Notes: a model not told the origin generated them from the letters alone. 32,000 nucleotides of DNA from Bdellovibrionales bacterium (GCA_965247685.1 OZ252021.1:840001-872000); one strand, 5' to 3'. Positions 2,669 to 32,000 are shown, counted from the first letter of the stretch. Numbers and translations: made by a program.

Positions 2669-2702
2669 ATGCACTAATATAATGAGTGTTCTATTGTACT
2701 AA

Positions 2703-2843
2703 GATTTCAATTCTTCTTGAGAGACAAAATGCTAATCTTATGAATAAAACTGTTAGTAACAGGCAATACGATAGAATTCAAAAAATTGACTGTAACTATA
2801 TAGATCCGTTTTGATTGCACTACAATTTCCTATATGATAAAAT
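2703..2843 (+). CRISPR. orphan copy of the CRISPR leader (2703-2807) plus one solitary, perfect 36-bp repeat (2808-2843)
   Basis: 2703-2843 aligns with 5819-5957 (the array leader plus first repeat). The repeat GTTTTGATTGCACTACAATTTCCTATATGATAAAAT is identical. The approx. 60 nt upstream are identical except for 2 substitutions next to the repeat, and the distal leader carries a 2-nt indel and a few mismatches. Confidence 0.85.
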
Positions 2844-2898
2844 CTATATCAAAACCAAGCTAACAAACAAAATAAATTTCAATTTGTAAGTAGTTTAA

Positions 2899-3252
2899 TT
2901 ACTTCTCACATTGAAACTCATAATTATGAGTTGGGTTGTAGCCCATAATCCATAAAAAAGGAATCCAAAAAAATAGTCCGCCAATTAAAGCTCCAACACT
3001 TAACCGTTCAGTTCGACTGAACATTACAGATTGGCTTTGACAGCCTGCTTTTCTCAAATTAACAGATGTTGTAGAACCCACTACTTTAGTATCAGAGTGC
3101 AAAACCTCACCTGTACCTTGATATTGACCATCGACATACACTTTGACGTTGCGGTCAATATTGCCATTCCTATCTACTACACGAATAGATGTGGTGCTAG
3201 CACAAGATATTAAAGAGCTTGCTACACAAATAGAAATGATACGAAAAAACAT
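2899..3252 (-). CDS. small lipoprotein with C-terminal hydrophobic segment (PEGA-like beta domain, tentative)
   Basis: 117-aa ORF with lipobox LISC (VASSLIS-C-AST). VKVYVDGQYQGTGEV resembles PEGA-type motifs. C-terminal TM-like segment is GALIGGLFFWIPFLWIMG. Confidence 0.55.
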   Translation of the reverse strand: MFFRIISICVASSLISCASTTSIRVVDRNGNIDRNVKVYVDGQYQGTGEVLHSDTKVVGSTTSVNLRKAGCQSQSVMFSRTERLSVGALIGGLFFWIPFLWIMGYNPTHNYEFQCEK

Positions 3253-3445
3253 AAAAACCCCCTTGGAATAGTTTATAGCATCCTACTGAGATGATTTAAC
3301 ATAGTCAATAATCAAAAGAAAAATAAATGAAGAAGTGTTCATTTTAATCAAATTTATTACAAACTAAGGCTAAACCTGCAACCATAAGTAATGCCAATTC
3401 AAAGAACTCGCTATTTTTTTAAGGGTGTTCTTATGGAAGACATAG

Positions 3446-3471
3446 CTGAAAGACATCAAAATGTCTTTCAG
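3446..3471. terminator. perfect 11-bp stem / 4-nt loop hairpin, probable terminator downstream of the abiE operon
   Basis: CTGAAAGACAT-CAAA-ATGTCTTTCAG lies 59 nt past the abiEii stop. The T-rich tail (GTTATTTTAT) is only on the + strand, so the strand it serves is ambiguous. Confidence 0.4.
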
Positions 3472-3529
3472 GTTATTTTATACCGAGCACATGGGTAACA
3501 CTTTCGCTCTAAAGGGATGATCTTACTTG

Positions 3530-4378
3530 TTAAAAGTTTATCTTTTTAACAATATCTTTTGTTGTTTGAACATAGTATGAAAAATTTTGATTAAGACCTT
3601 TTACTGTAGATTGTACTTCTTGCCATCCTATTTCCTGTGATGTCAGAAAATCATCACTATTCAAACAAGAATCAATCAATGAAAGAGGTACATTTTTTGC
3701 TTCAAATACCTTTACGATATGTTTGGACAGCTCTTTAAAAAAATCATTAATTTTTCCTTCATCAAGAACTTTTGTATAAATTTGTTCTATATCATAAAAG
3801 TCACGAGCCCTATTGTTATGTGTGCTTCGATACTTATAATCAGGATGAGATTGACATATAGCTCGAAGTTTTTCCAGAATAAGTAAAGCCTTGGAATAAA
3901 CTTTTATTTCAATGGACTTTACTCTAATTATTTCGAAACTTTCACTGTATTCCATTTCACTGATATCAATTGGAATTTTATTTGTTAACAAACCTTCCGG
4001 AATAATAGCGGAGGCGGATTTTTGATAGACTTTGTTGTTCTTTAGTTATGAGTTTAAATTCAATAGCCCATCCACTCAAGGAGTCAGAACTCCAGTCTGT
4101 CTTATTATAGGTTTACGAATTGGTTTGAAATCGATAACATATAGTTTATTTTTTAAAAATTCTTTACGTATTGCTGATTCAAGATAATTAAAAAAATTAT
4201 TTTCTTTCTCAATTTTTTCAGGAAAAGAAAAATCAGAATCTCTGGATAATCGAGATTTTAAATTATGTACAAATCTTAGAGCTTGTCCTCCTTTTAAATA
4301 CATCTTTCCACTTAAGATATCATGTGAATAAATGGCTACAAGAATTTTCCAAACAACCTCTTCAGCGGTTATCATCAA
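3530..4378 (-). pseudogene. abiEii: AbiEii/DUF1814-like nucleotidyltransferase toxin, interrupted by two in-frame stop codons
   Basis: ORFs 4076-4378 and 3530-3991 are in the same frame. The N-part has LKGGQALRF...RLSRDSDFSF (the nucleotidyltransferase GG...D.D motif of AbiEii). The C-part has LEKLRAI...RARDFYDIEQI. In-frame TGA at 4078-4076 and TAA at 4048-4046 interrupt an otherwise continuous 283-codon frame. The ORF overlaps the stop of abiEi by 17 nt. Confidence 0.65.
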
Positions 4379-5231
4379 TCACTCCTTTGGGATAATGAAT
4401 TTTCCATTTTGAATCATAAGACCAATTTTTATTAAAATTTTTATCTAAATAAAATGTTATTTTAGGAGAAGAAAAATAATTTAACCATTTTTTGCTGATA
4501 TGAGGTTCCTTTAATCTGGAAAGTAGGAAACCTATAGACTGCCAGTAAGGATAAAAAGGGGAATAAGCTTCATAAACTTTATAGAGTTTGTTAATGTTTA
4601 TGCGAGCTTTAGCAAAAGCATTTATAAGAGTTTTAATTCCACCACTATAATGGGGGCTGATTAGAGAATCGATAAGTGTTCTTTCCAGTGATGTAAAAAA
4701 TATTTTAACTTGTCTTGTTTTATCTATTTTCAGTAATTTATTTTTAACTCCTATTTTACCTAAGTCTTGTTTTTCTAATAATGTAATTTTAGTTTTTTGA
4801 TACATAAAGTATTTAGATGTTTTTCTTGGGGATTTAAGGAAGGCTTGATGTATTTTTGCTGAAATCTTTTCCTTTGAATGAGTAGGAATTCTTCCAACAA
4901 TCTCTTTGGATAAAAAATATTCTTCTGGCCTATGATTTGTTAATTCATTTAAGTATAAAGCTGAAAAATGACTAAGGTAATATCTTGGATGAAAAGCTGT
5001 TAATATATCAATAATTTGGATCTTATTTAAATTAAAAGTTAAGAGCTTATAATCTGCTGTTGCATTCCAAACTACAGGGACTTCTGTTACAGCTCTTAGA
5101 ATACGTGTTTTTTCTTGATCTGTAATACGTTTGTTTTTATGCATTTTTTGAAGTAGTTTTTCCAATGTTATCTCAGGAAAAACCATAGGTAATTTTGAAG
5201 AAAGTTCTGTTTTAAATTTTGCAATGGACAT
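4362..5231 (-). CDS. abiEi: AbiEi-like antitoxin / transcriptional regulator (type IV TA)
   Basis: 289-aa ORF immediately upstream of and overlapping the AbiEii-like gene. Motifs LSHFSALYLNELT and TSLERTLIDSLISPHYSGG are typical of AbiEi-family proteins. Recognised from memory, not searched. Confidence 0.6.
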   Translation of the reverse strand: MSIAKFKTELSSKLPMVFPEITLEKLLQKMHKNKRITDQEKTRILRAVTEVPVVWNATADYKLLTFNLNKIQIIDILTAFHPRYYLSHFSALYLNELTNHRPEEYFLSKEIVGRIPTHSKEKISAKIHQAFLKSPRKTSKYFMYQKTKITLLEKQDLGKIGVKNKLLKIDKTRQVKIFFTSLERTLIDSLISPHYSGGIKTLINAFAKARININKLYKVYEAYSPFYPYWQSIGFLLSRLKEPHISKKWLNYFSSPKITFYLDKNFNKNWSYDSKWKIHYPKGVIDDNR

Positions 5232-5253
5232 TACTGTTTAACTCTGTTTTATT

Positions 5254-5281
5254 GTATCATGTGTATATATACACATGATAC
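5254..5281. promoter_or_regulatory. 28-bp perfect palindrome in the abiEi promoter region (candidate AbiEi operator)
   Basis: GTATCATGTGTATA|TATACACATGATAC lies 23-50 nt upstream of the abiEi ATG (5231) and contains a TATATA -10-like core. Confidence 0.55.
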
Positions 5282-5447
5282 TTCTAATTTTAAGATAAGT
5301 CAAGAGAAAAAATGGTAATTTATTAGTTTACATAATTCTTAGTTTCTCCTACAATTTGAAGGGATTTTAAAGGGAAACTTCGGTTACTATAGGTTGTAAG
5401 CGGTTACCAACAGGATGAATAGGTGGTATTTTGTTTAATTTTGAAGT

Positions 5448-5602
5448 TATTTTAGAGTTTTGAAACCCTTACCTTCTATCCCGTCCACCCCACAGATTTC
5501 TTCAAGAAGTGTAGAAAAAATATTTGGAACCTTTTGAACTTCATCTAAAACAACCTTCTTTGATAATCCTTTTACAAACCCAATAGGATCTTCTTTGCTG
5601 TT
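5448..5602 (-). pseudogene. gene fragment resembling the Walker-B region of an AAA-type ATPase
   Basis: A 51-codon open stretch translates to NSKEDPIGFVKGLSKKVVLDEVQKVPNIFSTLLEEICGVDGIEGKGFKTLK*. VVLDEVQ is a hhhhDE Walker-B-like motif. There is no start codon or N-terminal part, and stops flank it in all frames. Confidence 0.25.
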
Positions 5603-5818
5603 TTAGTCACTACATCATCTTTAGCTATTCTGTTTGCCGTACTTAGCAGTGAGTTTAAGTTTAGAAAAATAAAAAAGCATCTTGGAATAAACAAAAAGAA
5701 GTGAAGACAGGTTTTAGTGAAGTTAATTAAAGATTTTCTATCAGGATATGGAAGGGAGATTTTAACAGAGGCCATAAATAAAATAGAAAAATTTACTGGA
5801 GAAAGAGATTGGAGTAAG

Positions 5819-5921
5819 GATTTCAATTCTTATTGAGAGATAAAATGATATATATGAATAAAACTGTTAGTAACAGGCAATACGATAGAATTCAAAAAAT
5901 TGACTGTAACTATATGGATCT
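5819..5921 (+). promoter_or_regulatory. CRISPR leader (transcription-upstream flank of the array)
   Basis: AT-rich 103-nt flank directly 5' of the first repeat in crRNA orientation. It is conserved in a second copy at 2703-2807 and contains the inverted repeat CTGTTA-G-TAACAG (5864-5876). Confidence 0.6.
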
Positions 5922-7540
5922 GTTTTGATTGCACTACAATTTCCTATATGATAAAATAAAGATATCAGCTCATCAAAAAAGCGGGTAGTTTTGATTGCAC
6001 TACAATTTCCTATATGATAAAATGGTAAAACAATTTATAAGTATGCAAATGGTGTTTTGATTGCACTACAATTTCCTATATGATAAAATGGGCTTGTTAA
6101 GCACTATTAATAGGTATATGTTTTGATTGCACTACAATTTCCTATATGATAAAATAGGTTGCGTTGAAAGTCTGTTTTGAAGGGCGTTTTGATTGCACTA
6201 CAATTTCCTATATGATAAAATTGTTATATTATAGTTAAGTAAATAAATCTAGTTTTGATTGCACTACAATTTCCTATATGATAAAATATAAATCTTGAAC
6301 AATTCACTAAGATAATAGTTTTGATTGCACTACAATTTCCTATATGATAAAATTCTTCTTTTGTACTTTCTATTTTTGTAAGTGTTTTGATTGCACTACA
6401 ATTTCCTATATGATAAAATTTAAAAGAAATAAACAAGGAGCTGGAAGTGGTTTTGATTGCACTACAATTTCCTATATGATAAAATTATTCGGTCATATTG
6501 TGTAAAGAGATCATGGTTTTGATTGCACTACAATTTCCTATATGATAAAATAAAGAATATGATGAATGAGGTGGCCAGAAGGTTTTGATTGCACTACAAT
6601 TTCCTATATGATAAAATATATTATAGTTAAATAAACAATTGTCTAGGGTTTTGATTGCACTACAATTTCCTATATGATAAAATTGGTTTACAATTGGTGT
6701 AAAAACCAGCTGGGTTTTGATTGCACTACAATTTCCTATATGATAAAATATCTATAGATCAATTAAATAAAAAAGTCTAGTTTTGATTGCACTACAATTT
6801 CCTATATGATAAAATTGAAAAGCCGTGGTTGTCCGATAAGACTAGGTTTTGATTGCACTACAATTTCCTATATGATAAAATATTACAAGTTGATTCACAA
6901 GCTCGGACGATGTTTTGATTGCACTACAATTTCCTATATGATAAAATATTTATAGAAGATTACAATAATAAATATGCGTTTTGATTGCACTACAATTTCC
7001 TATATGATAAAATACCACTAGAATAAATATGGATTGGAACTCCGTTTTGATTGCACTACAATTTCCTATATGATAAAATTCATTGTACTGGATGGAATGA
7101 ATATAATGTGTTTTGATTGCACTACAATTTCCTATATGATAAAATTCCTCGGTTAAGGACCTCGCCTCGATTTATGTTTTGATTGCACTACAATTTCCTA
7201 TATGATAAAATAGTTACAGAAATTGTGGGTTTCACAACTCCGTTTTGATTGCACTACAATTTCCTATATGATAAAATGGGTCTTCGTTCCACACACCACC
7301 TGCGTTGGTTTTGATTGCACTACAATTTCCTATATGATAAAATAAATGTAAAATTTGAGAATGGATGTGCTTAGTTTTGATTGCACTACAATTTCCTATA
7401 TGATAAAATTGAAGTGGCCGGAACTATTAATATTGCTACGTTTTGATTGCACTACAATTTCCTATATGATAAAATTTATAAATATGCAAACGGTAGGAAG
7501 CCTTGTTTTGATTGCACTACAATTTCCTATATGATAAAAT
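5922..7540 (+). CRISPR. CRISPR array, 25 x 36-bp repeats, 24 spacers (23 x 30 bp, last one 29 bp)
   Basis: Repeat GTTTTGATTGCACTACAATTTCCTATATGATAAAAT starts at 5922, 5988, 6054 ... 7440 (period 66) and at 7505. All copies look identical on inspection. Orientation is set by the GTTTT 5' end and by the strand of the tracrRNA anti-repeat and its terminator. Confidence 0.97.
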
Positions 7541-7582
7541 AAGCCATTTATAACTCCTTGAAATTACAGGAGTTATTGGCTT
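7541..7582 (-). terminator. long hairpin between cas2 stop and array (probable cas-operon terminator / barrier to array read-through)
   Basis: AAGCCA-TTT-ATAACTCCT / loop TGAAATTAC / AGGAGTTAT-TGGCTT gives a 15-bp stem with a 3-nt bulge. On the - strand it is followed by ATTTTAT. Confidence 0.5.
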
Positions 7583-7591
7583 ATTAAAAAC

Positions 7592-7924
7592 TCAAAATAG
7601 TAGCAACTGTTGTTTCTTCTTAGTTAATTTTTCATCATACTTTCCACGAAAACTCACAATATTACTAAACTGCTTATCCGTCACAGCTAATAGATCAATT
7701 TTCCCATTTTGAGGCAGTTGGTAAGAAATTTTTTTAATGAGACTTTCCACCTTTTCTTTACTAGGGCATACCTTAGAATAAACAGAATATTGAACCATCT
7801 GAAAACCAAGATCCAATAAACGATACCTAAATTTAGATGCCATTTTTCTCTCTTTTTTTGTTGTTACCGGTAAATCAAAAAAAGTAAATAACCACATAAC
7901 TCTATAATGACCTAAATAACTCAT
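7592..7924 (-). CDS. cas2: CRISPR-associated endoribonuclease Cas2
   Basis: 110 aa. N-terminal MWLFTFFDLPVTTKKERKMASKFRYRLLDLGFQMVQYSVY is typical of type II Cas2. It has a 4-nt overlap with cas1 and is adjacent to the array. Confidence 0.92.
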   Translation of the reverse strand: MSYLGHYRVMWLFTFFDLPVTTKKERKMASKFRYRLLDLGFQMVQYSVYSKVCPSKEKVESLIKKISYQLPQNGKIDLLAVTDKQFSNIVSFRGKYDEKLTKKKQQLLLF

Positions 7925-8871
7925 GCCGAAGTTTTTATTTTCTTAGAATATAAAAAACTTAAATTAAAATTTTGCCAATTTATCTTTAGATTAATATCCC
8001 ATTTTTTCTTTTCCTTACACAATACTAACGCCAAGGCGGTGGACATTCGAGAAATAACTTGAAACAGTGGACTTATTCCAGAGCATCCTTCAACATCCAC
8101 AATCACAAGACCTGACAGTACCTGCTTCACTTCCTTATTCACATCACGATATGCTTGTGAGTATAACTGTCTTACAACATAATCTGCGATAGGTCTAAAA
8201 GGCTCTATTAAGTCATCTACCAAACACATAGGATTATACATATTTCTATGATGAATACCTATACTAGGATGAAGCCCTGACACAATAACACCTCTTGCAA
8301 CACAAGACCGTATAATAGCATAAGCATAATTTAACATCGCATTAATGCCATCTCCATTTTGATCTCTTTTAAATTTGTTGGAAAATAATCTCATCCAATA
8401 GACCCTAGCACCTTGAGCTTCTAAATTATTCAAATCTCCAGGTTGAACTAAATTGGACATATTGAATAATTTTTTATAAGGCAAACCTAACTCCTTCAAT
8501 ACTAAAGATTGATTTTTTAACTTTAACTTTACCACTTCTTTCCACAATCTTTTTTGTAAAGATTGACTCATATTAACCTGAGATTGAATCCTTATATTTT
8601 GTTTACAATTTCCAACTAACGGCAAAAGAATAGCTCTTGGTGAAAAATTGGATCCACATATAGAAACTGGAATCCCACGATCTGATAATTCCACTAAAAT
8701 ATTAGAAGAATAAATACAACCATAACCTGTAATAACAATACCTAAAATATCATCAAGAGAAACACGAGATAATAAATTCTGTTTTTCTTTGATCTCTAAA
8801 AACCCTCTATATAAACTTAGACGAATATTAGGTCTCGAGATTTCAATAAACTGTCCAAAACTACTACTCAC
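7921..8871 (-). CDS. cas1: CRISPR-associated integrase Cas1
   Basis: 316 aa, positioned between cas9 and cas2. Size and the conserved C-terminal region (NAMLNYAYAIIRS...GLHPSIGIHHRN...LVDDLIEPFRP) fit type II Cas1. Confidence 0.92.
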   Translation of the reverse strand: MSSSFGQFIEISRPNIRLSLYRGFLEIKEKQNLLSRVSLDDILGIVITGYGCIYSSNILVELSDRGIPVSICGSNFSPRAILLPLVGNCKQNIRIQSQVNMSQSLQKRLWKEVVKLKLKNQSLVLKELGLPYKKLFNMSNLVQPGDLNNLEAQGARVYWMRLFSNKFKRDQNGDGINAMLNYAYAIIRSCVARGVIVSGLHPSIGIHHRNMYNPMCLVDDLIEPFRPIADYVVRQLYSQAYRDVNKEVKQVLSGLVIVDVEGCSGISPLFQVISRMSTALALVLCKEKKKWDINLKINWQNFNLSFLYSKKIKTSA

Positions 8872-8880
8872 AAACTCAAC

Positions 8881-11800
8881 CTAAGCACTATGTCTTTTAG
8901 ATTCTTCTTTACCAACAATAAAATCAGTCAATTGAACCAAACCACAAGGGCTAATATTAACTCGTTTAGGATTACATTTTTGTAGAGAAGATGGACTCTT
9001 TTGTGTGTACTTATATTGATCTGATCTACTTCTGTTTCTTGCATCTACATTCGCTTCAAAATGCTCTGAAAATGTTAGATTTTTATTTTGTGTAAATTTA
9101 ACAAGCCTCCAGAATCGACCAGCAAAAAATAACATATCCCCTTTCATCAATCTTGCTTTGTCTGGAATAGGCTTAAAAGTCTTTTGATTAGCAGAAAATA
9201 TACTTATAACTTGTGCATCCCATTTTCCGCTTGAGTTTTTAAACAGTTGAATTGCATAATTTCCATCCTCCTGAAAAAATTTGTAAATTTTTCCAAATTT
9301 ATTTTCAATAGGTATCACTCGTTCCTTTCTATTTAAGCGAACCCTGCGAATACCTGTTTTTTGGTGATAATTAATTAAAAATTCTTTAGAGAGGGTATTA
9401 TTGACTTTTAATTCTTTTAAAAAATCTTGTTTCACCTTTTCACTAATGATTCGACTTTCTATTTTCTTTTTATCTGCTCCGTTTAAAGTCAAAATTTCAA
9501 CATAATGGATCACATTAATTGGCTTGGAAAAAGTATTAACACTACCTAATACCCCGTAAGCTGTATCATTGTGGAGTTGACCTGCTTTTTTAGTTCTCCT
9601 TCTGTGAGATACAATAATTTGATCTATTACTCTCTTAGCATCTTCTTTAAAAGAAGGCCAAGGAATCACATCTTGTGTTATCACTCTACCAATATTCTCC
9701 AGCCTCTCTTTACTCTTTCCTTCTATTCCCTTCGCAATATTACTAATCTGTTGAACTAAAGAACGATCAACTAAACCTATCACAAGAGCATCTTTTGCAT
9801 GATGTCTATGATCGTTCCTATTTTTTTTATCATACTGTAACAAAGATCTTAAAAGAAATGTAGTCTGTCCTTTAACACTCCACACATCTTTACAAACTCT
9901 TCCTAAATACTGAATAGCATATTTAGATATATAACGAGTATCATTCAACTGCCTTTCTAAAAAGTTTCCATTTTCTTCAAATTTCTTCATAGCATCCTTG
10001 TTAAATTTCCATCGTTTTTGCTCAGATAACTCATTAACTCTCTGAAGAATTCCTGCCCATCGCACTTTATCAGATGAAAAGGCTTCATAAGGAGTTTGGT
10101 TCCCTTTTTGTTGATTAAAAACTTTATAAACCAACACTTTATTCATAAAGCCGTCATCTAAAGTCTTAGAGTAGGGCAATATGTGATCAACTTCCAGCTC
10201 TGGACTAAGAAGTTTAGTTTCTGGAATCTTTTTACCAGAGTAAACACAGGTATTGTTTTGCTCTTTCCAAAGCTTATATCTGACACGATTCGTTTTATTG
10301 TTAATTCCTCCAAACTCATCAATAAATTTTTTCGCATCTTCATTTCTTTTTTTATTATCATTTATTTTCTTATCTGATTTTTTTTTAGTTTCTGAGCCCA
10401 TTGGTAAATCTCTAGCTGTCTCTATCACCACCTCCATCGGTTTTCCATAGACACGAAGGATATCATTTACCAATAGCCTTAATTGATTAAAAGCAATATG
10501 GACTGTAGGATTTGGAATTCTGAAGGACTCAAATTTATTATGTTTACTCTCTGCTGTTTCAGACAATTTCATCTCCACACAATGGTCTCCTAAAACTTGC
10601 TGATAAAGAGGTAGCTTGTCTAACAACTCACCTTTATGTCTCCTATCTGAATGATGCCAGCCTGCTAACTTAATAGCTTCAATTTCCAATTCTCCCTTTT
10701 CAAGAAAAGGTATAATTTTGTGAATAACTTTTCTACTGTATTTCCCATGATCTTGTGGAAGATCGTTCATGTTTTCCAAAACGTTATCCAAAATTTGATC
10801 AGAAATATTTAAATTATTTTCTCTACTAAACTTTTGTAAATCTTTTAAGACTTCCTCATCCTTTTTTATAAAGATATCTTCTTGGCTTTCACCCTCCAAT
10901 AACTCGATAAATTGATCCTGAATATCTAAAGACCAACTTTGCCAATCAGGTATAAGGTTTGTCAAAACTATACTAGTTTGCTCTCCCTCTAAATAATTCC
11001 TATCGTTAATATCTAAGTTAAAACGAGAAAAGTCTTCTACATCAGAGAAAAAATTTTTAAATTCTTTTTCTAAAGAAGAAAATGTAACTTTATTTTTCTT
11101 TTGAAATAGCTTTTCAATAACATAATTTCTAAACTCAATACCTTTATCCATATCCTTCAATAACACACTTTCACCCATCATATTTATATAAGATAAATTA
11201 TTTAATTCTTTTAAAATCCTAAATTTTTGAAAAGAAGGCAATGCTCTACTAATTCGTTTCTCACTAGGGAGAAAATAACATTTTCCGACAATAGACTTCT
11301 TTAATTGCCTTTGATGAAAAATAGCCTTATGAAATAAAGCTTTCAACTTTTGATCTTTCAACTTATCGTAATATTGAGACTGAGAGTCCCAGAGTTTATT
11401 AAATTCATTTTCAATCATAGACCTTTGAGCATAAACAACATAATTCTCCTTAGCTCCAGCACCTATTGGCTTTCTAGCTAATATCCAGTGTTCTTGTTGA
11501 GATCCTGGGTGTTTTCTACTTTCTTCCATCTTTTGAAAACGTTTCCATAAAAATTCACCATATGTTCTAGCTCCACATTTTTCTAGTTGCTCTTCTGAAT
11601 TTTCTACAGATTTAGCAATAATCCCATCCTCTTTTCCACTTCCTGATTTCCTATTACTTTTAAAACCTCTTCTTTGATTTAAGTGAAATAAAGCTCTTCC
11701 AAAATGATAAATATTCAACTTTTCATCCAGCCCCTTGGTTCTTATTTCATATGGGTTTAAATTTTGTAACTCTTTTAAAGAACATTGATCCTCCGGGAAT

Positions 11801-12108
11801 AATCCATATTTTTTCAACAAATGAAGAAGATAAGCTCTTCTCTGTAAATAACGATCTCTTTGTCTTCTTTGCAGCCTTGCCTGCCTGCGAGTGGCATTTA
11901 AAGTTGTATAATCTTTGGAATTTCTACCAGAGGGAAAAATCCTCACCCCTGCTTCTGTAATCTCTTTAGGACTGTTGTTTTTATCTAAATTATATAAAGC
12001 CCACCCTATAGAATTAGTTCCTATGTCTAAAGCAAGTCTTAAGTTATTTGGGGGTTGTTTTAAATCTTGATTTAGATCTTTCAGTTTTAAAATTTTATCA
12101 CCTGACAT
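8881..12108 (-). CDS. cas9: Cas9, type II-C size class (1075 aa)
   Basis: Motifs present: RuvC-I LALDIGTNSIGWAL (D28), Arg-rich bridge helix RRQARLQRRQRDRYLQRR, RuvC-II VVIETARDL, HNH EVDHILPYS...NKVLV...NQQKGNQTPYE and RuvC-III HHAKDALVIG. AAGGAG RBS at 12117-12122, 8 nt from the ATG. No csn2 or cas4 in the locus. Confidence 0.97.
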   Translation of the reverse strand: MSGDKILKLKDLNQDLKQPPNNLRLALDIGTNSIGWALYNLDKNNSPKEITEAGVRIFPSGRNSKDYTTLNATRRQARLQRRQRDRYLQRRAYLLHLLKKYGLFPEDQCSLKELQNLNPYEIRTKGLDEKLNIYHFGRALFHLNQRRGFKSNRKSGSGKEDGIIAKSVENSEEQLEKCGARTYGEFLWKRFQKMEESRKHPGSQQEHWILARKPIGAGAKENYVVYAQRSMIENEFNKLWDSQSQYYDKLKDQKLKALFHKAIFHQRQLKKSIVGKCYFLPSEKRISRALPSFQKFRILKELNNLSYINMMGESVLLKDMDKGIEFRNYVIEKLFQKKNKVTFSSLEKEFKNFFSDVEDFSRFNLDINDRNYLEGEQTSIVLTNLIPDWQSWSLDIQDQFIELLEGESQEDIFIKKDEEVLKDLQKFSRENNLNISDQILDNVLENMNDLPQDHGKYSRKVIHKIIPFLEKGELEIEAIKLAGWHHSDRRHKGELLDKLPLYQQVLGDHCVEMKLSETAESKHNKFESFRIPNPTVHIAFNQLRLLVNDILRVYGKPMEVVIETARDLPMGSETKKKSDKKINDNKKRNEDAKKFIDEFGGINNKTNRVRYKLWKEQNNTCVYSGKKIPETKLLSPELEVDHILPYSKTLDDGFMNKVLVYKVFNQQKGNQTPYEAFSSDKVRWAGILQRVNELSEQKRWKFNKDAMKKFEENGNFLERQLNDTRYISKYAIQYLGRVCKDVWSVKGQTTFLLRSLLQYDKKNRNDHRHHAKDALVIGLVDRSLVQQISNIAKGIEGKSKERLENIGRVITQDVIPWPSFKEDAKRVIDQIIVSHRRRTKKAGQLHNDTAYGVLGSVNTFSKPINVIHYVEILTLNGADKKKIESRIISEKVKQDFLKELKVNNTLSKEFLINYHQKTGIRRVRLNRKERVIPIENKFGKIYKFFQEDGNYAIQLFKNSSGKWDAQVISIFSANQKTFKPIPDKARLMKGDMLFFAGRFWRLVKFTQNKNLTFSEHFEANVDARNRSRSDQYKYTQKSPSSLQKCNPKRVNISPCGLVQLTDFIVGKEESKRHSA

Positions 12109-12309: not shown

Positions 12310-12400
12310 ATCAACAATCATATAGGAAATTGTGGTACTCTCAATAACAAGCGAGTATTCGCACCAGTCTTAGGCGAAGGAAACTTCGCCTTTGTTTTTT
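12310..12400 (+). ncRNA. tracrRNA: tracrRNA (anti-repeat + nexus-like hairpin + terminator hairpin); 5' end approximate
   Basis: 12317-12333 ATCATATAGGAAATTGT is perfectly complementary to repeat positions 15-31. 12334-12348 GGTACTCTCAATAAC pairs imperfectly (wobble, 2-nt internal loop, 1-nt bulge) with the repeat 5' end GTTTTGATTGCACT. This is followed by hairpin GCGA-GTAT-TCGC (12351-12362) and a terminator. It is divergent from cas9. Confidence 0.8.
12373..12400 (+). terminator. rho-independent terminator of tracrRNA
   Basis: GGCGAAG-GAAA-CTTCGCC (7-bp stem, GNRA tetraloop) followed by TTTGTTTTTT. Confidence 0.8.
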
Positions 12401-12568
12401 CTATATTAAAAAATAAATCTTTTAATATCTGCATAAAAAGCCCCTTTCCAAAAGATAGGTAATAAGAAGAAGACTGTACACCTTTTGCACATTCATATTT
12501 TTGAGATGGCTGATAATTCAATTGGTCTCTTCCAAGATAAACAGATTTTTTAATAAAAAACTGAATAT

Positions 12569-12616: not shown

Positions 12617-12651
12617 GTTTTGATTGTACTACAATTTCCCGTAGGTAAAAC
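12617..12651 (+). repeat. solitary degenerate CRISPR repeat (same orientation as array repeats)
   Basis: GTTTTGATTGTACTACAATTTCCCGTAGGTAAAAC. The first 23 nt match the array repeat except C11>T. The 3' third is diverged, so the TGATAAAAT promoter-like box is lost. Confidence 0.8.
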
Positions 12652-12857
12652 TTATAGAATCAACAGCCTATATACTTTTTTGAATTTTATCACTGATAGA
12701 AGTTGATCTGTTTTTGTCACAACTGATCATAACTAAAATTAAAAAAAAATCCCAAATGGAACGATAAAGTTTTTACTGATTTTGATTAAGAATTTCGTTT
12801 CTTATCTTCAGTATATATGCTTTCGTGAGGGTTGCTTAATACCTAAGATCTTAAGTA

Positions 12858-14606: not shown

Positions 14607-15620
14607 CTACAAGCTAGCTACAGATTGTTCGCATTTTCGCCTTTCTGCTTCTTGAAGAATTTTCCCTGCATATGGAAAACTACTTGAAATTGCCATAAAT
14701 GAAGGTTTTCGATCCTGGTTATCTGGGATGCTCGGATCTGCTCCGAGTTCGAGAAGAGTGGTTATTGTATTTTGATGACCTTGTTCAGCTGCATGGTGTA
14801 AAGGTGTTTGACCTTTATTATCTTGTTCATTTAGATTTACTCCTTCTCTGTCGAAAAGTCTTATCATATATGAACGACCTTTTGTAGCTTCCAAGTGTAG
14901 AACTGTTTCACCCTTGTTATTTTTTCTATCCAGATCTGGTTTGTATTTGAAGAAAATTTCTGCCAGAAATGAATGACCCTTGTATTGGTGGGCTACGAGT
15001 GAAAGTAGGTGTAAAGGTGTTTGGCCCTTGTTATTTTGGCTATTCAGATCTGCTCCATTTTTAGCAAGATGGATTGCTATACCTGAGAAGAAATTTCTTA
15101 CTTGAACTGCACGATGTAAAGGAGTGTTACCTTCGTTATCTTTGATTTTTAAAACTTCTACTAAATCTTCTACTTCGATTTTTTTGAAGAGATTTTGTAA
15201 TTCACGTGAACTGCTTGCTTGAGCTAACAGGTGTAAAGGTGTTTGACCCTTGTTATTTTGGCTGTCTAGCCTTGTTTTGTTGAAGAGAGTTTTTGTTACG
15301 AGTGAATGACGTGCTTCAATTGCAAGATGTAAAGGTGTTTGACCTTCATTATCTGGTTTATTCAGAACTGCTCCATGTTGGAAGAGAACGTTTGCCATAC
15401 GTGAATTACCTCTTTGAGCTGCTATATGTAAGGCTGTTTGACCCTTGTCATATTTGGTATTTAATAAATCTCTTACTGTCGAAAGATCTGTTGCTTTAAG
15501 AAAAGTATCAATTTTCCGAGCATTTCCTTTTTGAACTAAATCGAAAAATTGATTTTCAAGTTCTTTTGCTCCTGCATAAGTAGTAAAACATAATATTATT
15601 CCGATAACATAAATTTTCAT
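14607..15620 (-). CDS. ankyrin-repeat protein with N-terminal signal peptide
   Basis: 337 aa with at least 7 tandem ANK units of consensus N.KGQTPLHLA....G (e.g. DNEGQTPLHLAIEARH, NNKGQTPLHLLAQ, DNKGQTPLHHAAEQGH). The N-terminus MKIYVIGIILCFTTYAGA is signal-like. Near-identical 33-bp DNA blocks occur inside the gene. Confidence 0.85.
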   Translation of the reverse strand: MKIYVIGIILCFTTYAGAKELENQFFDLVQKGNARKIDTFLKATDLSTVRDLLNTKYDKGQTALHIAAQRGNSRMANVLFQHGAVLNKPDNEGQTPLHLAIEARHSLVTKTLFNKTRLDSQNNKGQTPLHLLAQASSSRELQNLFKKIEVEDLVEVLKIKDNEGNTPLHRAVQVRNFFSGIAIHLAKNGADLNSQNNKGQTPLHLLSLVAHQYKGHSFLAEIFFKYKPDLDRKNNKGETVLHLEATKGRSYMIRLFDREGVNLNEQDNKGQTPLHHAAEQGHQNTITTLLELGADPSIPDNQDRKPSFMAISSSFPYAGKILQEAERRKCEQSVASL

Positions 15621-16012: not shown

Positions 16013-17551
16013 TCAACTATAGCGATCTTCACATTGTTCTTTTTTTTCTAAACAAGATGGGTGGTCAATAGAATGTTGCCCAGCTTGCTCAATACATTCA
16101 TAAAAAAACTGATTTTTCTCCTGACATTTTCCATATAAAATAAAATTAAAATGACGAGGACTTAAAAGAGAGATATTTTTTTCTTTATTAAAAGTACTAT
16201 TCCATCTCTTCCAATGATTGCTCATAATACTATCTTCACTAGTAAATCTACAATCATAGACTGAATGGGAATATTGTCCATAGTTATCAGATATCGCCTT
16301 TAGATTTTCTTTTTGAGAATAACTCCTTTCTTCATATTCATCCTCAAGCCCAAATAAGTGCAACATCTCATGAAGTATCGAGGGACAGTCGATATTTGAG
16401 GAATATTGGAATGTATTAGAGCGATGATGTCTTGACTGAATTTCAATTTTTTCTGATTTCTTTTTTTCACAAGTGTCTTTTGGAGATGAAATAATGATAT
16501 TCAATTTTTCTCCGTTGGGACCTATTAGTTTTGGATTGGCTTTATTCATACATTTTTTTACTTTTGTCATATAATGTTCAGGGATTTGGTCTTGAGGGAT
16601 ACTTCCATCATAATTTTTTCCTGCAACAAAATGCATGTTTAAATTAATAACATAAGATCCGTTTAGTTTTCTCTGGACTGAGTGGAATGGTGTAACAAGG
16701 TATCCATAAGGAAAAATCTTTTTTTCTGATCCAGGTTCTAAAGATTGACATATTTCCAATTCTTGCACTTTATTTAGAAAGTCTTTTATATCACTTATTC
16801 CGGTATTCGTTGTGAAATTTTGAGTTAGGCATATACCACCTTCTATATTAAATGTATCTTGTGGACTAACAAAAAGAGCTGTTAAATTTTCAATACGATT
16901 TTGGCGGATACGTATATCTTCATCAATAGTTTGACAAACAAAATTGTTTCTACTTTCCTTATTGAGACATTCCTGAGGTATCCTTTGTGTTTCTATTTTA
17001 TTAACTATTCTATTTAAGATTTGTGCAATGCAGTTTACGTCTTTATTTTTGATTTTATTAAAAACCTCAGAATGAACTTGGTCTGAACCATACCATATAC
17101 GATTTCTAAACGTATTCTTTGAACAGTGGTTGCAGTCTAGTGCCTCTTGCATTTCTTGGTAACCAATTGGTGCATCGACTGGATAATAGCCTTTTGGAAA
17201 TAATGTCATTTCTTCCATTTCTTGATAAGTTTGTTGAGATGCTTCAAGTATACGTGTTGTTGCGTCTTCAATGCATTCAGGGGAATTTTTACATAAATTT
17301 GCAATATCTTGTTGAAGGTTTTGCTTTATTTTTTGTAATTTTTCCAGATTCTCTTCATAAGGATATTTCTGAGGAAGTTCTCTTATTCGTTCAATAATAT
17401 CAGATACATCTAGGAGATCACCTTTTGTTTTCAAAGTAGCGTAGGGTCTCTCGGAGGTTATAGGAATGTATATTTTTTGTTCTTCTGCTATGGAAAATGA
17501 GGCTTTAGCAGTAATAAATATCAACAGTAATATAGATAGATATTTGTACAT
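16013..17551 (-). CDS. secreted zinc metalloprotease, metzincin-like (HExxHxxGxxD)
   Basis: 512 aa with signal peptide MYKYLSILLLIFITAKASFS. Contains the motif ILHEMLHLFGLEDEYE followed by a possible Met-turn (DSIMS) and many Cys residues. Family assignment (M64-like?) is uncertain. Confidence 0.65.
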   Translation of the reverse strand: MYKYLSILLLIFITAKASFSIAEEQKIYIPITSERPYATLKTKGDLLDVSDIIERIRELPQKYPYEENLEKLQKIKQNLQQDIANLCKNSPECIEDATTRILEASQQTYQEMEEMTLFPKGYYPVDAPIGYQEMQEALDCNHCSKNTFRNRIWYGSDQVHSEVFNKIKNKDVNCIAQILNRIVNKIETQRIPQECLNKESRNNFVCQTIDEDIRIRQNRIENLTALFVSPQDTFNIEGGICLTQNFTTNTGISDIKDFLNKVQELEICQSLEPGSEKKIFPYGYLVTPFHSVQRKLNGSYVINLNMHFVAGKNYDGSIPQDQIPEHYMTKVKKCMNKANPKLIGPNGEKLNIIISSPKDTCEKKKSEKIEIQSRHHRSNTFQYSSNIDCPSILHEMLHLFGLEDEYEERSYSQKENLKAISDNYGQYSHSVYDCRFTSEDSIMSNHWKRWNSTFNKEKNISLLSPRHFNFILYGKCQEKNQFFYECIEQAGQHSIDHPSCLEKKEQCEDRYS

Positions 17552-19779: not shown

Positions 19780-20358
19780 TTATTTTGAACCATTTGTATT
19801 TATAGGGAAGCACCAGTTGGGTTTTTGTTTTGTGCCTCCGTCATAAGGATAGGAGAAACCCTTCTTAATCAAATAATTAGATAGATTAATATTATCAACA
19901 TAAACATCTGCAACGATTCTAAAATATTTTCCCCTTTGAATATTGAGCAGATCAATTCTTTTTGCAGACTTTAATAAATCCTCAATTAATTTTTGGGCTT
20001 GAAGAGCTTTTTCTTTTTCACAGTCTGTGTTTCCTTGGATCTCTGGAGTATCTACACCGTTGACCCTAATGTTTATATTTTCTCCTATGAGAGGGTGGAT
20101 ATCTGGAATGTTAAAAGTGATAGTATCTCCGTCATAATTTCTCACATACTCCACACATCTCAAATTGAAGTCATCATGAATACAAGCATGGATCTGAGAG
20201 TTTTTAGTTCGAGTTGAGGAAGTTGTTTGAGGTTGTAGTGATGAAAGTTTTCTATTTAAGAAAGTGCAGCCAAAAATAAAAAAAATAACAATAAACAAAC
20301 TGTATTTCATAATGTTAATTATATCTCGCTCAATGGATATAGGGAGGCTTAATTCCAT
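19780..20358 (-). CDS. thermonuclease (staphylococcal nuclease, SNase-like) lipoprotein
   Basis: Motifs [18 protein letters not shown] and [13 protein letters not shown] are SNase-like. The probable true start is Met17 (ATG at 20310), giving [15 protein letters not shown] (lipobox) and removing the overlap with purE. Confidence 0.75.
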
Positions 20359-24967: not shown

Positions 24968-24977
24968 GAGGAAATAT

Positions 24978-25051
24978 GCGCTCGTAGCTCAACTGGATAG
25001 AGCATCAGACTTCGGATCTGAGGGTTAGGGGTTCAAATCCTCTCGGGCGCG
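24978..25051 (+). tRNA. tRNA-Arg (anticodon UCG)
   Basis: Manual fold: acceptor GCGCTCG/CGGGCGC, D-arm GCTC-AACTGGATA-GAGC, anticodon arm TCAGA-CTTCGGA-TCTGA (anticodon TCG), variable GGGTT, T-arm AGGGG-TTCAAAT-CCTCT, discriminator G. CCA is not encoded. Confidence 0.9.
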
Positions 25052-25075
25052 TGATTTTTATGAAATTTTGTTTTG

Positions 25076-25191: not shown

Positions 25192-25287
25192 AGGGTTCAA
25201 ATCCTCTCGGGCGCATGATTTTTTATGAAATTTTGTTTTGAAAAAAAAAAGCTATTTGTATAGATTTTTTTTATTGGCTATATGAAA
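25192..25287 (+). repeat. duplicated copy of the tRNA-Arg 3' end plus its downstream terminator region (pseudo-tRNA fragment)
   Basis: 25194-25287 repeats 25030-25118 at an offset of 164 bp. The shared sequence is GGTTCAAATCCTCTCGGGCGC, then ATGAAATTTTGTTTTGAAAAAAAA..GCTATTTGTATAG..TTTTTTTTATTGGCTAT, with a few substitutions and indels. No acceptor 5' strand is present upstream. The terminator copy at 25241-25272 sits 30 nt after the tolA-like stop. Confidence 0.8.
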
Positions 25288-25301
25288 TTTTATATGATGT
25301 T

Positions 25302-31404: not shown

Positions 31405-32000
<596 letters not shown>

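Follow-up and report, generated by a model that had tools for sequence, protein, structure and literature searches.

A solitary CRISPR repeat with a duplicated array flank beside a type II-C locus of a Bdellovibrionales bacterium

Single repeats that resemble those of a CRISPR array but reside outside of it, with no second repeat in their vicinity, are known as solitary repeat units (SRUs), a term attributed to Faure et al. 2019. They are a common component of CRISPR-cas loci, often in the company of toxin–antitoxin (TA) genes, and might stimulate the recombination of one locus with another (Shmakov et al. 2023, PMC10120712). The SRUs of type II systems are viewed in that work as arising mostly from spurious duplication and as potentially serving as substrates for such recombination (PMC10120712). 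When borne by mobile genetic elements (MGEs), solitary repeats act as RNA anti-CRISPRs (Racrs; PMC10651486). In type II-C systems, each repeat carries its own promoter, the last, cas-proximal one is where spacers are acquired, and the oldest repeat of the array is the first, a spacer-less 'extra' repeat which together with about 25 nt of upstream sequence may give rise to an extraneous CRISPR RNA (ecrRNA; PMC12080349). Here we describe a solitary repeat next to a type II-C locus in a stretch of 32,000 nt from a Bdellovibrionales bacterium (GCA_965247685.1 OZ252021.1:840001-872000), which in its full length is referred to as the window. On balance, we favour the view that the 141-nt segment at 2703-2843 of this window is an SRU that represents an orphan old end of an array, composed of about 105-115 nt of upstream sequence and an intact repeat, which was generated by recombination within a defence island.

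The repeat of this unit, GTTTTGATTGCACTACAATTTCCTATATGATAAAAT, agrees with all 25 repeats of the array at 5922-7540 in each of its 36 positions. It is located 3.1 kb from the nearest other repeat and no second one follows within 100 nt downstream of 2843, where the best ungapped identity of 18/36 equals the background level, and it thus displays the properties by which an SRU is defined. In a BLAST search of the window against itself, the region 2693-2843 was identified as a direct copy of 5808-5957, the sequence upstream of the array together with its first repeat, with 92.1% identity over 152 columns (E = 4e-56), and in a repeat search the final 105 nt of the duplication (2739-2843 and 5853-5957) were found to be 98% identical. 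An earlier note on this DNA had placed the copies at 2703-2843 and 5819-5957, and its description of 105 nt plus 36 nt and 103 nt plus 36 nt, separated by 2975 nt, is correct, although the true starts are located about 10 nt further to the left, at 2693 and 5808. A larger hidden duplication was not detected, with neither 5660-5818 nor 5309-5467 showing significant similarity to 1-2702. The base-by-base alignment of the two copies contains 11 differences, which are split nine to two between the distal 46 nt and the proximal 105 nt, a skew (Fisher p = 4e-4) that reflects a divergence of about 20% in the distal as opposed to 2% in the proximal part. The two proximal differences are at positions -6 and -1 from the repeat, which itself contains none, as is also the case for the 63 nt at 2739-2801. 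The upstream region of the first copy harbours a 13-nt palindrome, CTGTTAGTAACAG, and to the right its repeat is followed by CTATATCAAAACC and the lipoprotein gene, whose 3' end is 55 nt away. Both this distance and the presence of an extended -10-like box, TGATAAAAT, at the repeat's 3' end had been recognised in the earlier note and hold; a promoter-like TTGATT-16-TATGAT was flagged in addition.

The same note had termed the duplicated flank a leader, which is the wrong word since acquisition in type II-C systems takes place at the cas-proximal repeat (PMC12080349). This polarity agrees with two features of the seven more distant loci that were used for comparison, whose flanking genes differ in every genome. 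In L001, L002 and L003, the degenerate or mutated repeat is the cas-distal one, and the layout of a region of about 50 nt between cas2 and the array, with a conserved hairpin, is preserved in six of the seven, being displaced by an insertion in L006. By analogy to the described systems (PMC12080349), the cas2-proximal side would thus be the acquisition side of the array. The cas-distal upstream regions, in turn, have nothing in common between genomes. What has been duplicated is the old end of the array, comprising the upstream region and the oldest 'extra' repeat.

Between them, the two copies enclose an accessory block of 3 kb with a lipoprotein gene, an AbiEi/AbiEii TA module and a fragment of an ATPase gene, a content that had been described previously and that is borne out by the list of open reading frames (ORFs), PADLOC, Pfam and tblastn. 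Because direct repeats bracket this block, recombination through the bracketing homology is the most economical origin, and since the flank was duplicated along with the repeat, this recombination should have proceeded through the unit itself. The duplication of the flank also rules out a simple splitting of the array by an insertion, and it rules out an integration of the spacer type, which duplicates only the repeat; a 'giant spacer' integrated by Cas1-Cas2 in the window was rejected on the same ground. As most likely we envisage a homologous recombination at an array's cas-distal end, located in a TA/defence island, for which the repeat and the adjoining proximal flank would have provided the homology and which might have followed one of three routes: a single crossover with a circular DNA bearing the unit; a one-sided insertion, anchored by homology, of DNA from a related strain in which this cargo was the natural upstream neighbour of the array; or a local, older duplication with subsequent insertions, thus a process of accretion. 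All three lead to the same layout and are not separated by the data, and by any of them the uneven divergence of the copies would require that the proximal 105 nt were subject to either selection or gene conversion. As there is no spacer followed by a repeat, the unit does not hold immune memory. Judged from its motif, the promoter of the orphan repeat would fire rightwards, antisense to the lipoprotein gene, and read-through from the plus-strand gene at 2168-2668 could conceivably generate an 'extraneous' RNA that resembles a crRNA but lacks a spacer, which the hairpin in the upstream region would be expected to blunt. The two copies constitute direct repeats of 141-152 nt, between which the 3.1-kb block could be looped out.

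Several points weigh against the assignment of the segment as a recombination-derived orphan array end. With no close relative on record, an empty-site or alternative allele was not available, and the order of events is not fixed. The split between 20% distal and 2% proximal divergence is unexplained and hints at a unit that is not a mere relic, and the upstream region is not conserved between relatives so that a function cannot be read from conservation. Finally, the frameshifts in the AbiEii gene described below could be sequencing errors if the source assembly was obtained from long reads. The features of the locus are compiled in the table.

Table. Features in and around the duplicated segment and the type II-C locus, in window coordinates
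Feature	Coordinates	Strand	Basis
Copy A ('U_A') of the sequence that precedes the oldest (first) array repeat	2693..2807	+	Aligns to 5808-5921
Solitary repeat unit with a single perfect type II-C repeat of 36 nt	2808..2843	+	0 mismatches to array consensus
Lipoprotein-like ORF, 117 aa, signal peptide ending LISC, C-terminal hydrophobic segment	2899..3252	-	ORF list
AbiEii toxin gene, apparent pseudogene	3530..4378	-	PF08843 on both halves; PADLOC AbiEii
AbiEi-like antitoxin/regulator gene, 289 aa, intact	4362..5231	-	PADLOC AbiEi, E = 2.6e-14
28-nt perfect palindrome in AbiE promoter region	5254..5281		Self-BLAST, terminator scan
AAA_14/DUF4143 ATPase gene, internal fragment, ~45 codons (residues ~55-100)	~5468..5619	-	tblastn with L004 AAA_14 proteins
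32-nt copy (31/32) of 366-397, unexplained recombination scrap	5628..5659	+	Repeat search, self-BLAST; 0 expected in shuffles
Copy B ('U_B') of the same upstream sequence, immediately adjacent to the array	5808..5921	+	Alignment to copy A
CRISPR array, 25 identical 36-nt repeats, 29-30-nt spacers	5922..7540	+ (predicted crRNA sense, converging on cas2)	Repeat search
cas2-array spacer region, conserved hairpin ~10 nt from cas-proximal repeat	7541..7591		Relatives' layout
cas2	7592-7924	-	Pfam Cas2
cas1	7921-8871	-	Pfam Cas1
cas9	8881-12108	-	TIGR01865 Cas9, E = 1.7e-184
tracrRNA: anti-repeat, hairpins, terminator, divergent from cas9	12316..12405	+	Sequence, fold, duplex energy
Third solitary repeat, degenerate (29/36), array orientation, beyond cas9 and tracrRNA	12617..12652	+	Repeat comparison

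The described architecture is not confined to the window. A Cas9 identical to that of the window (P0001) is recorded on a 1.28-Mb contig, and the nearest Cas9 on record is 66% identical, with no close relative being recorded and a genome scan returning one relative at 56%; the relatives of the protein are annotated as metagenome-assembled genomes (MAGs) of Bdellovibrionales. If repeats in array orientation within 10 kb of cas9 are counted, solitary repeats are found around the CRISPR-Cas loci of five of the seven relatives. L009 contains a perfect repeat past an AAA_14 gene and L006 a repeat with 42 nt of array flank (96% over 78 nt), both upstream of cas9. In L005, a repeat with its flank (69-71%) and a PDDEXK_2 gene are duplicated on both sides of the locus, L004 contains two degenerate repeats adjoining AAA_14 genes, and L002 one full and one truncated repeat, with direct repeats of 160 nt surrounding a different, non-homologous AbiE pair. 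There is no orphan repeat in L001, where direct repeats of 770 nt bracket the locus, and no solitary repeat within 10 kb of cas9 in L003. Orphan repeats and duplicated array flanks are thus recurrent in this clade and no one-off.

In the window itself, the degenerate repeat at 12617-12652 is near-intact in its first 23 nt and mutated at its promoter end, and its 29 matching positions compare to a background with a maximum identity of 22/36. Its flank bears no similarity to the upstream region. Since this repeat is located beyond cas9, the cas operon is bracketed by repeats. An assignment of the same sequence as the anti-repeat of the trans-activating crRNA (tracrRNA) was rejected, as it is the candidate at 12316-12405 that has a structured tail and is conserved in relatives. 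The relative position of the degenerate repeat is the same as that of the solitary repeats of L006, L005 and L009.

Further repeats and genes were observed around these loci. In several relatives, direct repeats of 0.4-1.3 kb bracket the whole module consisting of tracrRNA, cas9, cas1, cas2 and array (L001, 7062-7778 and 16267-17019; L004, 8908-9771 and 19790-20245; L005, 5906-7233 and 15757-17369), and in L005 they include the PDDEXK_2 (Rpn-like) gene. The flank of the truncated repeat in L002 is a multi-copy element (9429-9754, 17196-17367, 19814-20226) with an inverted copy upstream of cas9, so that this locus is also bracketed by inverted repeats. Genes of the AAA_14/DUF4143 family or their fragments adjoin the type II-C loci in most relatives, often directly beside solitary repeats (L003, 8567-9715; L004, 16681-17841 and 20285-21460; L006, 836-1831; L009, 351-1487; window, 5468-5619), with one of the genes in L004 residing between an orphan repeat and the first repeat of the array. 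They are also present in L008 (12062-12310 and 18093-19331), a locus that is introduced below.

Among alternative explanations, the one that fares best, and which we nevertheless consider unlikely, was proposed in the earlier note. It invokes a circular episome carrying its own unit of upstream region and repeat, with AbiE as TA maintenance cargo, that entered the first repeat or its flank by a Campbell-type crossover. Direct repeats around foreign-looking DNA are the expected product of such an event, repeats are present at both junctions, and on its right side copy A stops where the repeat stops. Moreover, distant homologues of AbiEi are found beside AbiEii/AbiGii genes on small plasmids, and L002 displays the same topology, with direct repeats around another AbiE pair and one copy ending in the truncated repeat. 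While the bracketing of a 3-kb accessory block with AbiE and the ATPase fragment by direct repeats of homology thus stands, an origin from an episome is unsupported. The insert carries no integrase, replication or mobilisation gene in the ORF list or Pfam, and its composition is ordinary: with a GC content of 30.2% compared to 33% and an unremarkable tetranucleotide distance, a foreign composition was rejected. No cargo joined to the homology was found elsewhere, and there were no matches at the DNA level in plasmids, nor any in viral contigs and JGI metagenomes. Specifically, JGI metagenome contigs and viral contigs contain neither the exact repeat nor a 29-nt block of the upstream sequence, the repeat family is not represented in them, and the viral contigs are also devoid of relatives of AbiEi.

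The insert is instead a mosaic with gene fragments. The lipoprotein-like ORF belongs to no Pfam, NCBIfam or PADLOC family and lies outside of the AbiE cassette as found in relatives. Within this cassette, AbiEi and AbiEii overlap at 4362-4378 as expected for a single operon of AbiE, a type IV TA and abortive-infection system (PADLOC, Pfam). The toxin gene apparently does not encode an intact nucleotidyltransferase, since two compensating frameshifts (3990-4080) place residues ~96-121 in another frame when compared by tblastn to the intact 284-aa homologue of L008. Homologues of AbiEi with 70-82% identity are present on about 30 Bdellovibrionales contigs. At the DNA level, the cassette (3530-5308) is 79% identical over 1.8 kb to that of L008, which stems from the same genome as the CRISPR locus L004, and 86% over 1 kb to that of L007, from the same MAG as L003. 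Both of these cassettes are chromosomal, in TA/defence islands far from CRISPR, with the homology ending at the cassette borders and no repeat-like sequence nearby. The AbiE cassette is hence a discrete unit, with no repeat travelling along where it is found elsewhere. The palindrome at 5254-5281 is retained in both and is probably the operator of AbiEi. Of the ATPase gene fragment, the part at 5507-5619 is 90% identical to the intact AAA_14 gene of L008. The short scrap at 5628-5659 copies the stop codon and 3' flank (366-397) of a 328-aa gene at 393-1379, whose family is confined to the source genome, the sole homologue among 5.8 billion proteins being a 68% paralogue on the same contig. In light of the gene fragments, the frameshifted AbiEii, the absence of element genes and the repeat-less cassettes in other locations, the block looks like a decayed mosaic of accumulated island debris and not like one recently integrated episome.

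It is somewhat less probable still that the genome once contained two arrays in tandem orientation, or a locally duplicated array end, of which the left one collapsed to a single repeat, the present unit, by deletion between repeats while island genes accrued between the two. The scattered, partly degenerate repeats past the old array end in L002 and L004 are consistent with eroding arrays, and the divergence of about 20% in the distal part of the duplication suggests age. However, neither a second repeat nor a spacer has left a trace after 2843, and a collapsed mini-array was rejected for the lack of such a relic. The sequence to the right of copy A is also unlike the conserved cas2-proximal region that a complete type II-C array needs for acquisition, and an initial duplication of the flank would be required in any case.

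Of comparably low probability is a broader proposal, in which CRISPR repeats, alone or together with array flank, serve as portable homology arms of a cassette system of defence islands in this uncultured Bdellovibrionales clade. The solitary repeats around TA cassettes, AAA_14 genes or the whole cas module would then be footprints of insertion and excision, left by a repeat-mediated process that moves CRISPR-Cas and defence genes between sites and genomes. The proximal flank might in this case have been kept as a silencer of the spacer-less RNA that an orphan repeat would otherwise feed to Cas9.

An even smaller likelihood is attributed to a role of the unit as functional RNA, either as a spacer-less crRNA-like decoy or regulator (similar to ecrRNA, Racr, scaRNA or CreA) by which Cas9 is titrated or redirected or as a portable promoter antisense to the lipoprotein gene or AbiE. 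The gene on the plus strand at 2168-2668 has no predicted terminator before the unit. The repeat is perfect and retains its full complementarity to the tracrRNA (with -33.1 kcal/mol for the duplex between tracrRNA and repeat compared to -11.3 +/- 2.4 for shuffled repeats, as expected for an anti-repeat), and the proximal flank has remained 98% conserved while the distal flank drifted. In both copies, a bulged 16-bp helix covers 19 nt of the 25-nt would-be guide of an ecrRNA, with one of the proximal differences exchanging a U-G for a U-A pair. Although such an arrangement matches one of the strategies for the suppression of ecrRNAs in type II-C systems (PMC12080349), the likeness is only a hint, since the fold is no more stable than that of shuffled sequences (z about 0). 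The search for a regulatory guide does not support this role either. For the 24 nt upstream of both copies, seeds of 10-16 nt produced chance matches in coding regions alone within the 32-kb window, no target was found for these sequences or the one preceding the degenerate repeat, the cas9 and AbiE promoters included, and there is no pseudo-spacer with at least ~11 nt of partial complementarity to a promoter of cas or cargo genes in the window. The unit is not conserved among relatives, where position and upstream sequence of the solitary repeats differ in each case, contrary to expectation for a regulatory RNA, and SRUs of type II are mostly non-functional according to the literature (PMC10120712).

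Finally, an assembly artefact, whether by chimeric joining at the shared repeat or by the merging of two strains into one contig, is highly implausible even for the assembly of an uncultured organism, because 11 positions distinguish the copies, each of which is flanked on both sides by unique sequence, comparable structures are found in five independent assemblies of relatives, and the junction between repeat and non-array sequence at 2843/2844 must exist somewhere in nature.

The locus beside the orphan array end is assigned to type II-C as it lacks a fourth cas gene: cas9, cas1 and cas2 are accompanied by an adjoining array but not by csn2 or cas4, and neither the ORF list nor Pfam revealed a further cas gene between cas9 and the array. 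Each repeat of the array reads GTTTTG... on the plus strand and ends with TGATAAAAT, and the crRNAs would therefore run towards cas2. Based on the motif and its orientation relative to the tracrRNA, the repeats are predicted to contain an internal promoter from which the array would be transcribed towards the cas genes. The anti-repeat of the tracrRNA contains one bulge and four mismatches and is succeeded by a GCGA-GUAU-UCGC hairpin and a terminator composed of GGCGAAGGAAACUUCGCC and a U-tract (fold z = -4.0). It is retained about 200 nt upstream of cas9 in L002, L003, L005 and L009. Among the 141 spacers of the window and its relatives, none targets the window, the relatives' loci or the cargo. 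Two pairs of spacers in the array share stretches of 91-95% similarity (6222-6251 with 6618-6647, and 6032-6053 with 7473-7494), which suggests repeated acquisition from related targets.

Elsewhere in the window, the 3' 24 nt of a tRNA-Arg(TCG) gene (24977-25052) and 68 nt of its downstream flank are repeated with 92% identity at 25193-25288, about 70 nt away, in an arrangement reminiscent of an att-type scar that a once integrated, now lost element would leave. The gene of an ankyrin-repeat protein at 14607-15620 contains internal DNA repeats, and the 5' part of a 16S rRNA gene is located at the end of the window (31405-32000).

Lone repeats in the vicinity of CRISPR loci are commonly regarded as mere debris, and the window offers a clean case where a perfect repeat and its flank bracket a TA cassette. 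It is the clade-wide pattern, with repeats around cargo or entire cas operons in differing genomic contexts, that appears worth following. If a shuffling mediated by repeats were confirmed, it would offer a simple means, independent of integrases, by which CRISPR-Cas and adjacent defence genes could be moved, and it would explain the frequent presence of TA modules beside arrays. For annotation, the locus illustrates that the upstream side of a type II-C array is its old end and not a leader, and that a lone repeat at this end still contains a putative promoter and a site for pairing with the tracrRNA.

The relationship of the unit to known systems can be summarised as follows. With respect to ecrRNAs (Feussner et al. 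2025, PMC12080349), the upstream region and first 'extra' repeat from which they derive are precisely what has been duplicated here, and the helix over the 25-nt would-be guide resembles one of three described strategies for their suppression. In contrast to the survey, where 60% of extra repeats are mutated, that of the window is unmutated, and it is present in two copies with no upstream terminator found. As in Campbell-type integration, a homologous segment has been duplicated as direct repeats around an insert, which differs in being a mosaic for which neither a donor element nor element genes or an empty site could be demonstrated. Racrs and MGE-borne mini-arrays (PMC10651486; PMC6858448) similarly contain a solitary repeat that is able to pair with or load the effector machinery of the host, but they are encoded by viruses or plasmids, whereas the unit described here is chromosomal, next to its own array, and its repeat family is found in no viral contig. 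In CreTA, scaRNA and tracr-L, the element likewise derives from a repeat and lies in the vicinity of cas genes and a TA module, yet these are defined by a pseudo-spacer with partial complementarity to a promoter, which was not found for the unit, and the toxin of CreTA is an RNA, whereas the TA module of the window is a protein-based AbiE pair. The closest correspondence is to SRUs, with which the unit shares a single array-type repeat outside of an array, within the neighbourhood of a CRISPR-cas locus and in a TA-rich context. It is distinguished from ordinary SRUs by about 110 nt of the array's upstream flank that the repeat has taken along, and by its arrangement, since unit and array together bracket a TA-containing block of 3 kb and the units of relatives bracket whole cas operons. 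The unit of the window is thus a further example of the known SRU kind, with an unusually clear architecture.

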